IMG/VR virus record: IMGVR_UViG_2778261179_000014
Span: 1-30,147 of that record
Length of the DNA stretch: 30,147 nucleotides
Direction: 5' to 3' (one strand)
Source of the DNA: a virus
Lineage: Duplodnaviria; Heunggongvirae; Uroviricota; Caudoviricetes
The notes beneath the pieces were generated by a model. The model was not told where the DNA came from. It did no database searches and worked only from the letters and a program-made list of their open reading frames with translations. Shown here piece after piece: positions 4,331 to 17,030 of the stretch. A program made the position numbers and the translations under genes. Position 1 is the first letter of the stretch. Every line of letters begins with the position of its first letter.

Positions 4331-4868
4331 TATCGCGCCCTCAACAATGAGTTTTGTGATGCGGTGCCTGGTGCCTCCAGGTGACGTTAACCAGTTAACA
4401 ATTAACGCCGGATACAGAGAATCCACCCATAACACTGTTTTTGGTTTTAACTGTTCCGCGTGCGCTTAGCCGCATTCACCGCATCACAAAATTCACTTTA
4501 AAAATGGCGGCAGAGCAGTCACGGAGTAAAACTGATACCGCCAAACGTCACCAGAAAATTGATAACAGAGGGCGTTGCAGCGGGGTTGTCACTTAAGCGT
4601 ATGGTCAACCTGACAACCCGGTGTCCTCAACGGGGAAGGAATAACCCCGCCATACTTACCGCCGCGCCATTTCGCGGAGTGCCACAACCGGAAGCGCACG
4701 GTCGACGAAAATTTAACGACAGGCTATCTATAAACCAGCTACCTCGCCGTACGCTTTCGCGTTGTGTGCCTGCTTTTAACCACGTCAGGCGAGGTGGTTC
4801 CTGTTATTCCCCAACAACAAGAAATTTGTATAATCCGGATATCCCCAACAACGAGAAGAGTACTCAAC

Positions 4869-10606: not shown

Positions 10607-10760
10607 TTTTATATTGGCGAGGTAACGGGAGTTAAGTAGAATGGCTGCGGGTGCTTGAGGCTATCTGTCTCAGGCATGAACACCAAAGGCAGATAGAGAA
10701 AAGCCCCAGTTAACATTACGCGTCCTGCAAGACGCTTAACATTAATCTGAGGCTCAATCT

Positions 10761-10973
10761 ATGAACGGCAAATCTAGGTTAGCCTCTTACGTGCCGAAAG
10801 GCAAGGAGAAGCAGGCTATGAAGCAGCAAAAGGCGATGTTAGTCGCCCTGATCGTCATCTGTTTAACCGTCATTGTGACGGCACTGGTAACGAGGAAAGA
10901 CCTCTGCGAGGTACGAATCCGAACCGGCCAGACGGAGGTCGCTGTCTTCACAGCTTACGAACCTGAGGAGTAA
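10761..10973 (+). CDS. Mok-like upstream reading frame of the hok locus
   Basis: 70-aa ORF that includes the hok frame with a 19-codon N-terminal extension from ATG 10761. Confidence 0.4.
   Translation: MNGKSRLASYVPKGKEKQAMKQQKAMLVALIVICLTVIVTALVTRKDLCEVRIRTGQTEVAVFTAYEPEE
10818..10973 (+). CDS. hokD: Hok/Gef-family type I toxin (HokD/RelF-like, 51 aa)
   Basis: MKQQKAMLVALIVICLTVIVTALVTRKDLCEVRIRTGQTEVAVFTAYEPEE; AAGGAG RBS 9 nt upstream; single TM segment plus the conserved C and Y. Close match to my recollection of E. coli HokD. Confidence 0.85.
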   Translation: MKQQKAMLVALIVICLTVIVTALVTRKDLCEVRIRTGQTEVAVFTAYEPEE

Positions 10974-13147: not shown

Positions 13148-13507
13148 ATGCGTATAGAGTTTGTTTTGCCTTACCCGCCAACGGTGAACACCTACTGGCG
13201 GCGTCGTGGCAGCACATATTTTGTATCAAAAGTCGGTGAGCGTTATCGCCGTGATGTGGCGCTTATTGTTCGCCAGCAGCAACTGAAATTAAACCTGTCC
13301 GGAAGGCTGGCAATAAAAATTATTGCAGAGCCACCGGATAAGCGCCGTCGTGACCTGGACAATATCCTGAAGGCACCACTGGATGCACTGACGCATGCGG
13401 GGCTGCTCATAGACGACGAGCAGTTTGATGAAATTAATATTGTGCGCGGTCAGCTTGTTCCTGGTGGGCGGTTGGGGATAAAAATCACAGAACTGGAGTA
13501 CGCATGA
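13148..13507 (+). CDS. rusA: RusA-family Holliday junction resolvase
   Basis: 119 aa; conserved RusA features PPxxNxYWR near the N-terminus and DxDN catalytic motif (RRRDLDNILKAPLDAL). Confidence 0.85.
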   Translation: MRIEFVLPYPPTVNTYWRRRGSTYFVSKVGERYRRDVALIVRQQQLKLNLSGRLAIKIIAEPPDKRRRDLDNILKAPLDALTHAGLLIDDEQFDEINIVRGQLVPGGRLGIKITELEYA

Positions 13508-14193
13508 ATAACCAGTATTTACAGTTTGTTCGTGAGCAACTCATGATTGCCACCGCCGATTTGAGTGGATCAACAAAAGGGCAGCTTGAGGCCTGGCAGG
13601 AGAATGCCATGTTTGATACAGGGCGTTACAGGCGTAAAAAAATCCGGTACCGCGATGAAGTGACTGGAAAAATGATAACGCGGGATAATCCACCAATCCC
13701 GGGAAAGCAATCGCTGGCGAAGGGGACGTCAATTCCTCTGGTCAGTCCGGTTGAGTTTTCGACATCATCGTGGCGGCGGGCTGTTCTGTCTCTTGAAGAA
13801 CATCATAAAGCCTGGTTGTTGTGGTGTTACAGCGGGAGTATTTGTTGGGAATATCAGATCGCGATAACACAGTGGGCGTGGAATGAATTTAATACTCAAT
13901 CCGGTACCAGAAAAATTGCAGGGAAAACGCAGGAACGCCTGAAAAAATTAATCTGGCTGGCGGCGCAGGCAGTAAAAGCAGAACTTTTTGGTGGGGAAGG
14001 TTATGAATACCAGGAGCTGGCATTACTGGCGGGAGTGACAACTAAAAACTGGTCCAAAACATTTACTCGTCACTGGGTTGCAATGAAACACATTTTTCAC
14101 CGACTGGATAGTGAGGCTTTATTGTTTGTAATGAGAACACGTTCAAAACAAAAGGCGGCATTTTCAAAGCAAAGTGTTGCAAAAGTAGATTGA
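13504..14193 (+). CDS. Late-gene antitermination protein Q-like
   Basis: 229 aa, start overlaps the rusA stop; sits directly upstream of a terminator, tRNAs and the lysis cassette. Family assignment is by context and recall. Confidence 0.6.
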   Translation: MNNQYLQFVREQLMIATADLSGSTKGQLEAWQENAMFDTGRYRRKKIRYRDEVTGKMITRDNPPIPGKQSLAKGTSIPLVSPVEFSTSSWRRAVLSLEEHHKAWLLWCYSGSICWEYQIAITQWAWNEFNTQSGTRKIAGKTQERLKKLIWLAAQAVKAELFGGEGYEYQELALLAGVTTKNWSKTFTRHWVAMKHIFHRLDSEALLFVMRTRSKQKAAFSKQSVAKVD

Positions 14194-14256
14194 AAGGCAT
14201 ATATTTCATGCAAATCTGATATTTTGCCGATTTTGTACGTGATGGCAAAAGCAAAC

Positions 14257-14284
14257 AAAACCCGCCCACAAGCGGGTTTTTTTA
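14257..14284 (+). terminator. Rho-independent terminator downstream of the Q-like gene (tR'-like candidate)
   Basis: AAAACCCGC-CCACAA-GCGGGTTTT hairpin followed by TTTTT. Confidence 0.7.
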
Positions 14285-14365
14285 TGCCACTTATCTCGGA
14301 TAGACATGGTGAATGCGCTGGTGGAGGAGGTAAGGGTGATTTTTAACCAGGTGATTTTTGAATGC

Positions 14366-14394
14366 TTGCAACATTGATTTCGTAACGTTATTAT
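14366..14394 (+). promoter_or_regulatory. Sigma70-like promoter upstream of the tRNA cluster
   Basis: TTGCAA (14366-14371), 17 nt spacer, TATTAT (14389-14394); predicted start about 14401, just before the first tRNA at 14404. Confidence 0.5.
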
Positions 14395-14403
14395 GCTGCG
14401 CCC

Positions 14404-14479
14404 GGCCCTTTAGCTCAGTGGTGAGAGCGAGCGACTCATAATCGCCAGGTCGCTGGTTCAAATCCAGCAAGGGCCACCA
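14404..14479 (+). tRNA. tRNA with anticodon CAU, Ile2 (lysidine)-like
   Basis: Hand-folded cloverleaf: acceptor GGCCCTT/AAGGGCC, D-stem GCTC/GAGC, anticodon loop CTCATAA, T-arm GCTGG-TTCAAAT-CCAGC, encoded CCA. Resembles E. coli ileX from memory. Confidence 0.8.
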
Positions 14480-14480
14480 A

Positions 14481-14557
14481 CCGCCACTAGCTCATCAGGA
14501 AAGAGCGTCAACCCTTTAAGTTGAGTGTGCGAGGTTCGAGTCCCCGGTGGCGGTCCA
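14481..14557 (+). tRNA. tRNA-like gene with atypical anticodon loop CCTTTAA (anticodon UUU, Lys-type, isotype uncertain)
   Basis: Acceptor CCGCCAC/GTGGCGG (7 bp, C1-G72), D-stem GCTC/GAGC, anticodon stem TCAAC/GTTGA, T-arm CGAGG-TTCGAGT-CCCCG with one A-C mismatch, encoded CCA. Position 33 is C rather than the near-universal U. Confidence 0.55.
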
Positions 14558-14559
14558 GT

Positions 14560-14635
<76 letters not shown>

Positions 14636-14638
14636 TAT

Positions 14639-14713
<75 letters not shown>

Positions 14714-14717
14714 GTTA

Positions 14718-14765
14718 GAGTCTTTCAGTCTGCGATGATGGGAAATCCCGGAGTGACTGAAAGAC
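14718..14765. repeat. 11-bp perfect inverted repeat (GTCTTTCAGTC / GACTGAAAGAC) with 24-nt loop
   Basis: Seen directly; the loop contains a GGGA-AA-TCCC mini-hairpin. Confidence 0.6.
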
Positions 14766-14772
14766 GTTTAAG

Positions 14773-14845
14773 TTATGAATGATCGCCTTTTTTTGCAAAA
14801 TTGCTGTGCAGAAATACTAACCTTCGGGCAGGCGATCATTCATAA
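14773..14845. repeat. 15-bp perfect inverted repeat (TTATGAATGATCGCC / GGCGATCATTCATAA) flanking a 43-bp spacer
   Basis: Seen directly; the spacer begins with a T7 run. Confidence 0.6.
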
Positions 14846-14920
14846 GCACTCTGCTTTTATTCCGATTAACTGTGGTTGGTTTGTTGGATAGAGTGCTTTC
14901 CTTTCTGTATATATCGTTTC

Positions 14921-14950
14921 GCCCGCTTTTGCGGGTTTTTCTTTTCAAAT
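14921..14950 (+). terminator. Rho-independent terminator upstream of the holin gene
   Basis: GCCCGC-TTTT-GCGGG hairpin followed by TTTTTCTTTT. Confidence 0.7.
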
Positions 14951-15005
14951 CCCTTTCATTTCTCAGTGTAAAACTACGCCATCCGTTATTTGCGGAGGTG
15001 AGGCT

Positions 15006-15221
15006 ATGAAATCCATGGACAAAATTTCAACGGGCATTGCCTACGGCACCTCCGCAGGCAGTGCTGGCTACTGGTTTTTACAGTGGCTTGATCAGGTCAG
15101 TCCTTCACAGTGGGCTGCGATTGGTGTACTGGGGAGTCTGGTTCTGGGCTTCCTGACTTATCTGACAAATCTGTACTTCAAAATCAGAGAAGACAAGCGT
15201 AAGGCTGCACGGGGAGAGTAA
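15006..15221 (+). CDS. Class II holin / pinholin (phage 21 S-like) with dual-start motif
   Basis: 71 aa; Met1-Lys-Ser-Met4 dual start (MKSMDK) as in S21 antiholin/holin; two TM segments; strong GGAGGTGA RBS; directly upstream of a SAR endolysin. Confidence 0.85.
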
Positions 15222-15225
15222 TTCA

Positions 15226-15576
15226 ATGACTCAAAACTATGAACTGATTGTGAAAGGGATCCGCAATTTTGAGAATAAAGTTACGGTAACTTTAGCGTTA
15301 CGGGACAAAAAACGCTTTGACGGTGAAATTTTTGCCCTGGACATCTCGCTGGGCCGTGTTGAAGGTGCCGCGCTGGAGTTTTATGAGGCAGCAGCCAGAA
15401 GGAGCATCAGACAGGTCTTCCTGGATGTTGCTGCCGGGTTATGTGAAGGGGATGAGCAGTCGCCGGAAAAGCGCCCCGTAATTTTAGATGCGCAGAATGT
15501 GTGGATAACCTACAAAGGAAAGCTACTAGGAAGAATTACTGGTTCTCTGAAGACTCCTCCGGAATCACAACCTTAA
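15226..15576 (+). CDS. Hypothetical protein interposed between holin and endolysin (possibly YdfR/DUF1327-like)
   Basis: 116 aa with RBS; soluble; the family name is recalled from Qin prophage gene order and is unverified. Confidence 0.55.
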   Translation: MTQNYELIVKGIRNFENKVTVTLALRDKKRFDGEIFALDISLGRVEGAALEFYEAAARRSIRQVFLDVAAGLCEGDEQSPEKRPVILDAQNVWITYKGKLLGRITGSLKTPPESQP

Positions 15577-16679: not shown

Positions 16680-17030
16680 ATGCCATCACGAATCCCACGC
16701 GCCTGCCGTAAGCGTGGATGTGCAGGTACAACCACAGACAGTTCTGGTTACTGCGATAAACATCGTGGCGAAGGATGGGTACAGCATCAACGCGGACTGA
16801 GCCGCCACCAGCGTGGCTATGGCTCGAAATGGGATGCCACACGTGCGCGCATACTGAAGCGTGATAATCATCTGTGTCAGAACTGCCTGCGCAATGGGAG
16901 AGCCGTTGAAGCCAGAACTGTGGACCACATCATTCCGAAAGCTCATGGTGGCACGGATGCAGACAGTAACCTGCAGAGTCTGTGCTGGCCCTGTCATAAA
17001 GCAAAAACAGCGCGCGAACGCATCAATTGA
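16680..17030 (+). CDS. HNH endonuclease (terminase-associated)
   Basis: 116 aa; Cys-rich N-terminus; HNH core (DHIIPKAHGGTDADSNLQSLCWPCHKAK); immediately upstream of the terminase genes. Confidence 0.85.
   Translation: MPSRIPRACRKRGCAGTTTDSSGYCDKHRGEGWVQHQRGLSRHQRGYGSKWDATRARILKRDNHLCQNCLRNGRAVEARTVDHIIPKAHGGTDADSNLQSLCWPCHKAKTARERIN

Follow-up and report, generated by a model that had tools for sequence, protein, structure and literature searches.

Organisation of the locus

The window analysed here, that is the whole stretch of 30,147 nucleotides from a Caudoviricetes record in IMG/VR, represents the late control and lysis region of a lambdoid prophage. The upstream part of the region contains, in this order, a ydfU-like gene, rusA, Q (13504-14193), a pR'-like site, a tR'-like terminator and a second promoter-like site. 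These are followed by a cluster of tRNA genes, three consecutive hairpins (termed domains A, B and C), a terminator, the gene for a 71-aa holin (15006-15221), a ydfR-like gene, and the lysozyme and Rz genes. The moron slot between Q/pR' and the holin gene is presumably the position occupied by stx in Shiga-toxin phages.

A promoter scan located the pR'-like late promoter (TTGCAA-17-TATATT; 14177-14205, plus strand) at the end of the Q gene, and a TTGCAAAA...CATATT motif is also found before a short leader and terminator in the related phages L247, L284 and L244. The short pR' transcript would end at a tR'-like intrinsic terminator (AAAACCCGCCCACAAGCGGGTTTTTTT; 14257-14285, plus strand), which was read from the sequence; the terminator scan lists this hairpin on the minus strand only, and weak isrK/isrJ-type Rfam matches fall at the same place. 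The promoter scan also returned the promoter-like site of the tRNA operon, TTGCAA-17-TATTAT with a GC-rich discriminator (14366-14394, plus strand), 9 nt upstream of tRNA-Met. Elements of the form TTGCAT/TTGCGT-17-TATCAT/TATTAT/TACCAT occur at the same distance from the tRNA (8-9 nt) in the divergent loci L017, L040, L069, L070, L136 and L183. The sigma-70-like site before tRNA-Met resembles a stable-RNA (stringently controlled) promoter, and the tRNA cassette thus looks like an autonomous moron placed inside the late leader.

The tRNA cluster, Met(CAU)-Lys(UUU)-Thr(UGU)-Gly(UCC), spans 14404-14713 on the plus strand and was identified by ARAGORN and by Rfam tRNA matches. Its members are tRNA-Met (14404-14479), tRNA-Lys (14481-14557), tRNA-Thr (14560-14635) and tRNA-Gly (14639-14713). 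An intrinsic terminator (GCCCGCUUUUGCGGGUUUUUCUUUUC; 14921-14946, plus strand) closes the unit; this hairpin, at about 14918-14946, is the only plus-strand terminator in the scan and lies 60 nt before the holin start at 15006. In most of the homologues examined a terminator of varying sequence likewise follows the domains.

The domains start 1-7 nt after the 3' end of a tRNA, leaving no room for another promoter before them. Because the promoter-like site, the tRNAs and the terminator enclose them, the hairpins would constitute the 3' external transcribed spacer (3'ETS) of an autonomous tRNA operon, and we read them as the 3' trailer, of about 230 nt (14714-14946), of a prophage tRNA operon. 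From the sequence we infer the transcription, processing and stability of this trailer RNA, as well as any partner it may have. In phage HK639 the 5' half of tRNA-Gly has been lost and A-B-C is intact, which argues for selection on the trailer itself. The trailer RNA also suggests that the 3' trailers of phage tRNA operons can be selected in their own right. A separate tRNA promoter was not found in HK639, and expression there would thus depend on read-through from pR'.

Inverted repeats and predicted RNA structure

Three perfect inverted repeats downstream of the tRNA genes were returned by a repeat finder. Repeat I2 has arms at 14720-14730 and 14755-14765 (11 nt, 100% complementary, with 24 nt between them) and repeat I1 has arms at 14773-14788 and 14830-14845 (16 nt, 100% complementary, 41 nt between them). 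The third, I7, is a 9-bp repeat (14844-14852/14890-14898) whose first two bases are the last two of I1. I2 and I1 begin 7-60 nt past the last of the four tRNA genes and are the longest perfect inverted repeats with loops of up to 60 nt in the whole 30-kb window. An original prediction, made from the letters of the window alone, had pointed to two such repeats. Both exist, and the 11-bp stem with its 24-nt loop was described exactly; the other, given as 15 bp flanking 43 bp, is really a 16-bp repeat around 41 nt, and the third was absent from the prediction.

The two repeats had also been considered too long to be due to chance. In first-order Markov simulations of the window, an arm of at least 16 nt appeared in 1 of 200 simulations and an arm of at least 11 nt in 30% of the runs, so that length alone goes beyond chance for the 16-bp repeat only. 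For the 11-bp repeat, length is insufficient, and it is the sequence conservation described below that validates it. RNA folding of the 240 nt from 14711 to 14950 gave -85.3 kcal/mol (z = -6.4 against shuffled sequences), with three predicted hairpins plus the terminator.

Each hairpin was named and analysed separately as a domain. Domain A (14720-14765, plus strand), corresponding to the first of the two predicted repeats (I2), has an 11-bp outer stem, an internal loop (UGCGAUGAU/GGAGU) and an apical hairpin, GGG-AAAU-CCC. Domain B (14773-14845, plus strand), which corresponds to the second (I1), is a three-way junction made of P1 (14773-14788/14830-14845, 16 bp), P2 (14790-14797/14807-14814, with the 9-nt loop AAAUUGCUG) and P3 (CC-UUCG-GG, 14821-14828). 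Domain C (14844-14898, plus strand), built on I7, consists of an outer stem (14844-14852/14890-14898), an 8-nt bulge on the 5' side and an inner helix (14861-14871/14878-14888); its helices are thus of 9 and 10-11 bp, split by the bulge, and B abuts C without a spacer. The 3' strand of the inner helix of C, GGUUGGUUUGUUGGAU, is almost invariant, this sequence having also served as a search pattern. A/U-rich linkers, GUUAGA and GUUUAAG, lie between the units.

Covariance models built for the three domains gave 70-100 bits overall on the plus strand and 17-29 bits on the minus strand: 74.9 against 21.4 bits for model R1 (domain A), 95 against 26 bits for R2 (domain B) and 70 against 17.5 bits for R3 (domain C). 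R1-R3 would allow the systematic annotation of A, B and C. An intrinsic terminator is a G+C-rich hairpin with a U-tract immediately after it; A, B and C were tried as such terminators and rejected for lack of a U-tract, the sequence immediately downstream being GUUUAAG for A, domain C for B and UCCUUUCUG for C.

Homologues and covariation

Homologues were collected by scanning IMG/VR with a 17-mer and the GTDB genomes with a 16-mer. At least about 75 distinct sequences were obtained, from about 100 IMG/VR phage contigs, HK639 and several Enterobacterales. The GTDB scan gave mostly chance matches, the real ones being a handful of Enterobacterales among the matches listed, which included Enterobacter hormaechei, Phytobacter ursingii, Yokenella regensburgei and Shigella flexneri. 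HK639 matches the segment at only 76% identity, with every helix kept through double substitutions and G-U intermediates. A comparison with the same locus in related prophages, proposed as a check in the original prediction, showed all three helices retained through compensatory change.

In alignment A1 (domain A, 26 distinct sequences) 94.1% of the cells were paired, a value that fell to 40-51% when the partners were slid by 1-3 columns, and 7 pairs had changed on both sides. The corresponding values for alignment A2 (domain B, 30 sequences) were 93.8% and 30-52%, with 5 pairs changed on both sides, all of them in P1, and those for alignment A3 (domain C, 27 sequences) were 91.6% and 37-50%, with 4 such pairs. 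When stand-alone copies of C were included (alignment A5), 89% of the cells were paired and 7 pairs had changed on both sides. None of 500 shuffles reached the observed covariation score for any of the three domains, in a test that ignores phylogeny. RNAalifold, applied to 14 full-length sequences, independently predicted A, B (with P1, P2 and P3), C and the terminator, and 13 of the 64 pairs of its consensus are compensatory.

P2 of domain B was 99.6% paired in A2, its loop sequence having itself been used as a search pattern. The conservation of this loop and of the G/U strand of C is partly inflated, both sequences being search patterns; with an independent pattern P2 was found to vary slightly among homologues, and in phage L340 it is deleted. 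Moreover, a strand composed of G and U alone can still pair after a transition in the opposite strand, and part of the one-sided variation needs no other explanation.

The alignments also show a preference for one strand. G-U cells numbered 64-71 per domain, against 6-26 A-C cells, and pairing dropped to 80-88% when the minus strand was read. Because of this G-U asymmetry and the strand-specific model scores, the selected molecule is an RNA made in the direction of late transcription and not a DNA cruciform or a protein site. We therefore regard it as highly probable that the repeats are helices of a selected, plus-strand non-coding RNA. The suggestion of a small structured RNA, one of several in the original prediction, is thus borne out by covariation, G-U asymmetry and strand-specific covariance-model scores, which agree with each other.

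Distribution and modularity

The 247-bp segment occurs at 581 places, which are spread over 536 of the 5,426 complete E. coli genomes (about 10%), with a median of 1 and a maximum of 3 places per genome. All of these places are chromosomal and none is on a plasmid. The locus of E. coli Ecol_224 is 100% identical to that of the window. Carriers include ExPEC lineages, for example IHE3034 and ST131 isolates, and prophages of Shigella, Enterobacter, Phytobacter and Yokenella also carry the trailer RNA. Every copy whose flanks were examined belongs to a phage late region, near tRNAs, Q or lysis genes. Among the matches listed, RefSeq has no feature under the E. coli segment other than the adjacent tRNA, and no ncRNA annotation. 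An RNA of about one in ten complete E. coli genomes is unannotated or, in two phage records, is entered as a 38-aa protein.

Judged from their arrangements in related phages, domains A, B and C recombine independently. B-C follows the tRNA directly, without A, in L042, L041, L025 and L017, and follows a small hydrophobic ORF in L069, L004, L040 and L084. A-B occurs without C in L005, L108 and L118, and A alone in L183. A scan with the 3' strand of C found this domain alone in about 20 phage contigs; it lies immediately after pR'-tR' in L247, L284 and L244, and about 20 nt before a start codon in L283 and L267. In L265 and L302 it is preceded by the end of an ORF and followed by a terminator and a putative holin start.

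A 38-aa hydrophobic ORF (MGIWKIALILTASLIAGVIIYIDVISDLIADANFLHLP) replaces tRNA-Gly and domain A in L069 (4521-4637, minus strand), L004, L029, L087 and about ten other loci. In L069 only 2 nt separate the end of the ORF from 4518, the first position aligned to the B model. The small ORFs of L040 and L084 are different ones, and two other small membrane-like ORFs end within the 5' arm of B. The 38-aa hydrophobic ORF could be the gene of a small membrane protein or of a type I-like toxin, in which case B-C would form its 3' UTR.

Relation to known RNAs

Searches with Rfam 15 (4,227 models) showed that the four tRNAs alone reach the gathering threshold in 13500-15500, and at E values up to 10 only junk matches, far below threshold, were found over 14714-14900. 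In the whole window the gathering scan returned only tRNAs, DicF and sok. The STnc100, AgvB, AsxR, Esr41 and isrK models have no match in 14714-14900. STnc100 (RF02076) has no match in the window but does match a neighbouring segment in L002, L005, L069 and L284. This family of Hfq-binding sRNAs adjoins the downstream end of A-B(-C) in HK639, L005 and L069 and that of the stand-alone C in L284; the matches are at L002 3277-3482, L005 371-563, L069 4106-4304 (minus strand), L284 8805-9005 and L108 6455-6567. A full-text literature search with diagnostic sequence strings of the trailer RNA found no paper, and a literature search for HK639 found nothing on the hairpin region. On these comparisons, the trailer RNA is taken as an undescribed member of the class of prophage late-leader/tRNA-trailer RNAs.

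The moron slot is a known home of prophage sRNAs (PMC4104026; bioRxiv 10.64898/2026.05.13.724894). Convergent sRNAs at the pR' moron site were described by Tree et al. (PMC4104026), and Zhu et al. found PasA, PasC and PasD adjoining the holin-lysozyme genes in EPEC, with PasB sitting among structural genes. STnc100 is related to PasD according to the 2026 preprint. The trailer RNA is like STnc100/PasD, PasA/PasC, AgvB/AsxR and StxS/IsrK-type RNAs in occupying the slot between Q/pR' and the holin-lysozyme genes, and shares with the prophage moron-site sRNAs a non-coding, horizontally shuffled nature. The AgvB/AsxR-type sRNAs are convergent to late transcription (PMC4104026), whereas the trailer RNA is co-directional with it and fused to tRNAs. 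With the trailer, the non-coding RNAs found between Q and the lysis genes of lambdoid phages gain a member that is supported by covariation and made up of three separable domains.

STnc100/PasD are thus the closest neighbours of the trailer RNA, which in organisation comes nearest to 3'ETS-leuZ of the E. coli glyW-cysT-leuZ operon. In both cases the trailer of a tRNA operon fills the space from the last tRNA to the intrinsic terminator, the order in the window being promoter-like site (14366-14394), tRNAs (14404-14713) and terminator (14921-14946). As for 3'ETS-leuZ, the trailer would be freed by tRNA 3' processing and would carry the terminator hairpin at its end. 3'ETS-leuZ is reportedly about 50 nt long and nearly unstructured apart from its terminator, with a defined sequence that pairs with RyhB and RybB. 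In contrast, the prophage-borne trailer is of about 230 nt and has three co-varying domains, and the two share no sequence similarity. The species 1 and 2 RNAs of phage T4 are structured non-coding RNAs co-transcribed with a tRNA cluster and released by processing; their likeness to the trailer is one of organisation only, T4 belonging to a different phage group.

Three other relationships were considered and rejected. For the Pas sRNAs, the comparison covered the partial PasA and PasD sequences given in the supplement of PMC8550237, which are unrelated to the trailer. A relationship to GcvB was suspected from a shared GUCUGCGAU and the G/U-rich strand, and no significant similarity or complementarity to K-12 gcvB was found: the best shared word is of 9 nt (E = 0.2), and the duplex energy of -83.6 kcal/mol equals that of shuffled sequences (mean -81.7 +/- 6.4). 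Domain A shares GAUGAUG...GGG...CCC with tRNA-Gly, a resemblance too weak to claim that it is a decayed tRNA 3' half.

Possible functions of the trailer RNA

By analogy with 3'ETS-leuZ and STnc100/PasD, the trailer could be a stable, trans-acting processed RNA, a reading that we favour among those considered here but put forward tentatively, as quite possible and short of probable. Transcription would start at the promoter-like site of the tRNA operon itself in the lysogen, or at pR' under the control of Q during lytic growth. The transcript would cross the four tRNAs and A, B and C and, without Q, would end at the 14921-14946 terminator. The trailer would then be released when the host enzymes for tRNA 3' processing cut out tRNA-Gly, and would fold into three stable domains with short A/U-rich linkers between them. 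A stable small RNA might persist whole, or be cut into A and B-C-terminator pieces, and its conserved loop and G/U-rich strand might contact a partner RNA or protein, as the 3'ETS-leuZ sponge and STnc100/PasD do. If the trailer is a riboregulator or a processing module, it bears on the expression of prophage tRNA cassettes and on the rewiring of host RNA networks by prophages.

Against an sRNA role, the RNA is almost entirely helical and offers little single-stranded seed, unlike typical Hfq sRNAs. A search of the 30-kb window for complements of the three conserved loop and strand sequences found only the elements themselves. In the leaders or 5' UTRs of other phages, C stands alone with no terminator within about 110 nt, and it thus fits a cis element better than a free sRNA.

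The hairpins may instead serve as cis-acting RNA punctuation, that is, as processing or stability elements of a long untranslated late leader, a possibility that we rate as rather unlikely for the trailer as a whole. As at the RNase III sites of T7, structures cut by RNase III or RNase E, along with end-protecting hairpins, would separate the tRNAs, sRNAs and lysis mRNA, and the hairpins would protect the 5' and 3' ends that cleavage creates. The domains coincide precisely with the boundaries tRNA|A|B|C|terminator, with the linkers GUUAGA and GUUUAAG, and are shuffled independently, as cassettes would be; among the loci examined, none of the neighbouring protein genes stood out as conserved. 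For C in particular, this explanation is favoured by copies that stand alone just downstream of tR' or some 20 nt ahead of a start codon. The long helices (16 bp in B, about 20 bp with the bulge in C), which are placed end to end without a spacer, point the same way, and like the RNase III hairpins of T7 and lambda they are long imperfect helices with asymmetric internal loops located between the units of a polycistronic transcript. An element placed as a 3' trailer is also compatible with the original suggestion of a processing site for the tRNA transcript. However, RNase III substrates typically consist of a duplex of about two turns, in many cases interrupted by an internal loop, and the perfect helix of B (16 bp) is below this length. 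Neither end protection nor RNase III should require the near-invariant GGGUGGUUUGUUGG of C and AAAUUGCUG of B across divergent phages; the strong conservation of one strand of C, with no known requirement for RNase III, also sets the trailer apart from the T7 and lambda sites.

It is improbable, although worth stating, that the domains are RNA effectors of another kind, either as a counter-defence or host-manipulating trailer acting with the tRNA cluster, or with C as a cis element acting on the transcription or translation machinery. The tRNA cluster looks adapted to evade anticodon nucleases (C33 in tRNA-Lys and, in some homologues, a tRNA to which ARAGORN assigns a two-base anticodon). The near-invariant G/U strand of C and its recurrence by pR'-tR' and at operon starts support the view of this domain as a new cis element.

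Even less probable is a cis regulator of elongation or termination in the late leader, either an RNA of the put/EAR kind, modifying RNA polymerase, or an attenuator at 14921-14946, where control of the terminator would set the flow into the lysis genes. Such a regulator would agree with a structured RNA that directly precedes one or more intrinsic terminators and the holin gene, with B and C as two directly abutting stem-loops, and with the recurrence of C by pR'-tR' and at operon starts. The put sites of HK022 are two adjacent stem-loops just downstream of a promoter, which act in cis on RNA polymerase, whereas the hairpins in the window come after tRNAs, or elsewhere after tR', and not directly after a promoter. 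The phages already encode Q, which makes polymerase resistant to terminators, and the downstream terminators differ completely among homologues with no matching change in B or C. Alternative anti-terminator pairing was not found, and constitutive read-through from the tRNA promoter into the lysis genes would be expected to kill the lysogen.

The original prediction had also offered DNA-level readings, namely the terminal inverted repeats of a miniature transposable element or an attachment or recombination site. Taken together with a protein operator, such an element is very improbable here. Its attraction lies in the arms, which are perfect 16-bp and 11-bp inverted repeats, and in its location beside a tRNA 3' end, a common integration target. 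Miniature inverted-repeat transposable elements have many dispersed copies per genome, in unrelated contexts and with target-site duplications. The search for multiple copies that had been proposed gave instead about one copy per prophage across the 5,426 E. coli genomes, and with a median of one and at most three copies per genome a miniature transposon is ruled out. All flanks examined are phage late regions, the repeat finder detected no flanking direct repeats, and the arms evolve through G-U intermediates in a strand-asymmetric way. Covariation also extends to P2, P3 and the apical hairpins, where a DNA site would have no use for it. The same evidence of copy number, late-region location and G-U pairs leaves the attachment or recombination site without support.

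Least probable of all is a small protein gene, the 38-codon ORF at 14775-14891, which is ATG-initiated, spans B and C and is annotated as a "hypothetical protein" in the GenBank phages vB_EcoM-606R7 and vB_EcoS-689R5. This ORF has no Shine-Dalgarno sequence, its start codon lies within the 16-bp helix, and its frame is shifted by a T-run in B that varies from 6 to 9 T among near-identical copies. In HK639 the frame meets a stop after 10 codons, and the substitutions over the ORF are helix-compensating and follow no codon pattern. A protein-coding reading of 14775-14891 was thus rejected, since the frame is not conserved among homologues, and the 38-aa "hypothetical protein" of ON470580.1 (16511-16627) and ON470583.1 is probably a mis-annotated non-coding RNA.

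Other features of the region

The tRNA-Lys(UUU) gene (14481-14557) has the anticodon loop CCUUUAA, with a C in place of the otherwise invariant U33, and its score with the tRNA model is only 44 bits. The gene resembles phage tRNAs thought to evade anticodon nucleases. In the related loci L069, L040 and L017, the tRNA that ARAGORN places between tRNA-Met and tRNA-Thr is given an anticodon of two bases, which points to an unusual anticodon loop. Most codons read by the cluster are of the ANN type (Met/Ile, Lys, Thr).

Two defence-like genes were noted next to stand-alone copies of C. A 501-aa protein in L283 (5967-7472, minus strand) has a reverse-transcriptase-like motif, RYRDDY, and a 1,050-aa protein in L108 (2261-5413, minus strand) is metallophosphoesterase/NTPase-like, both being judged from sequence alone. 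There are hints in these neighbours that the late-leader/moron region may also gather defence cargo.

Elsewhere in the window, the DicF sRNA (73 bits) was found at 4505-4556 on the minus strand and the sok antitoxin RNA (110 bits) at 10649-10823 on the plus strand, the latter implying a hok/sok-type module. The HNH partner of cos-type terminases is usually located between Rz and the small terminase subunit, and an HNH-endonuclease-like ORF of 116 aa (16680-17030) occupies this position in the window.
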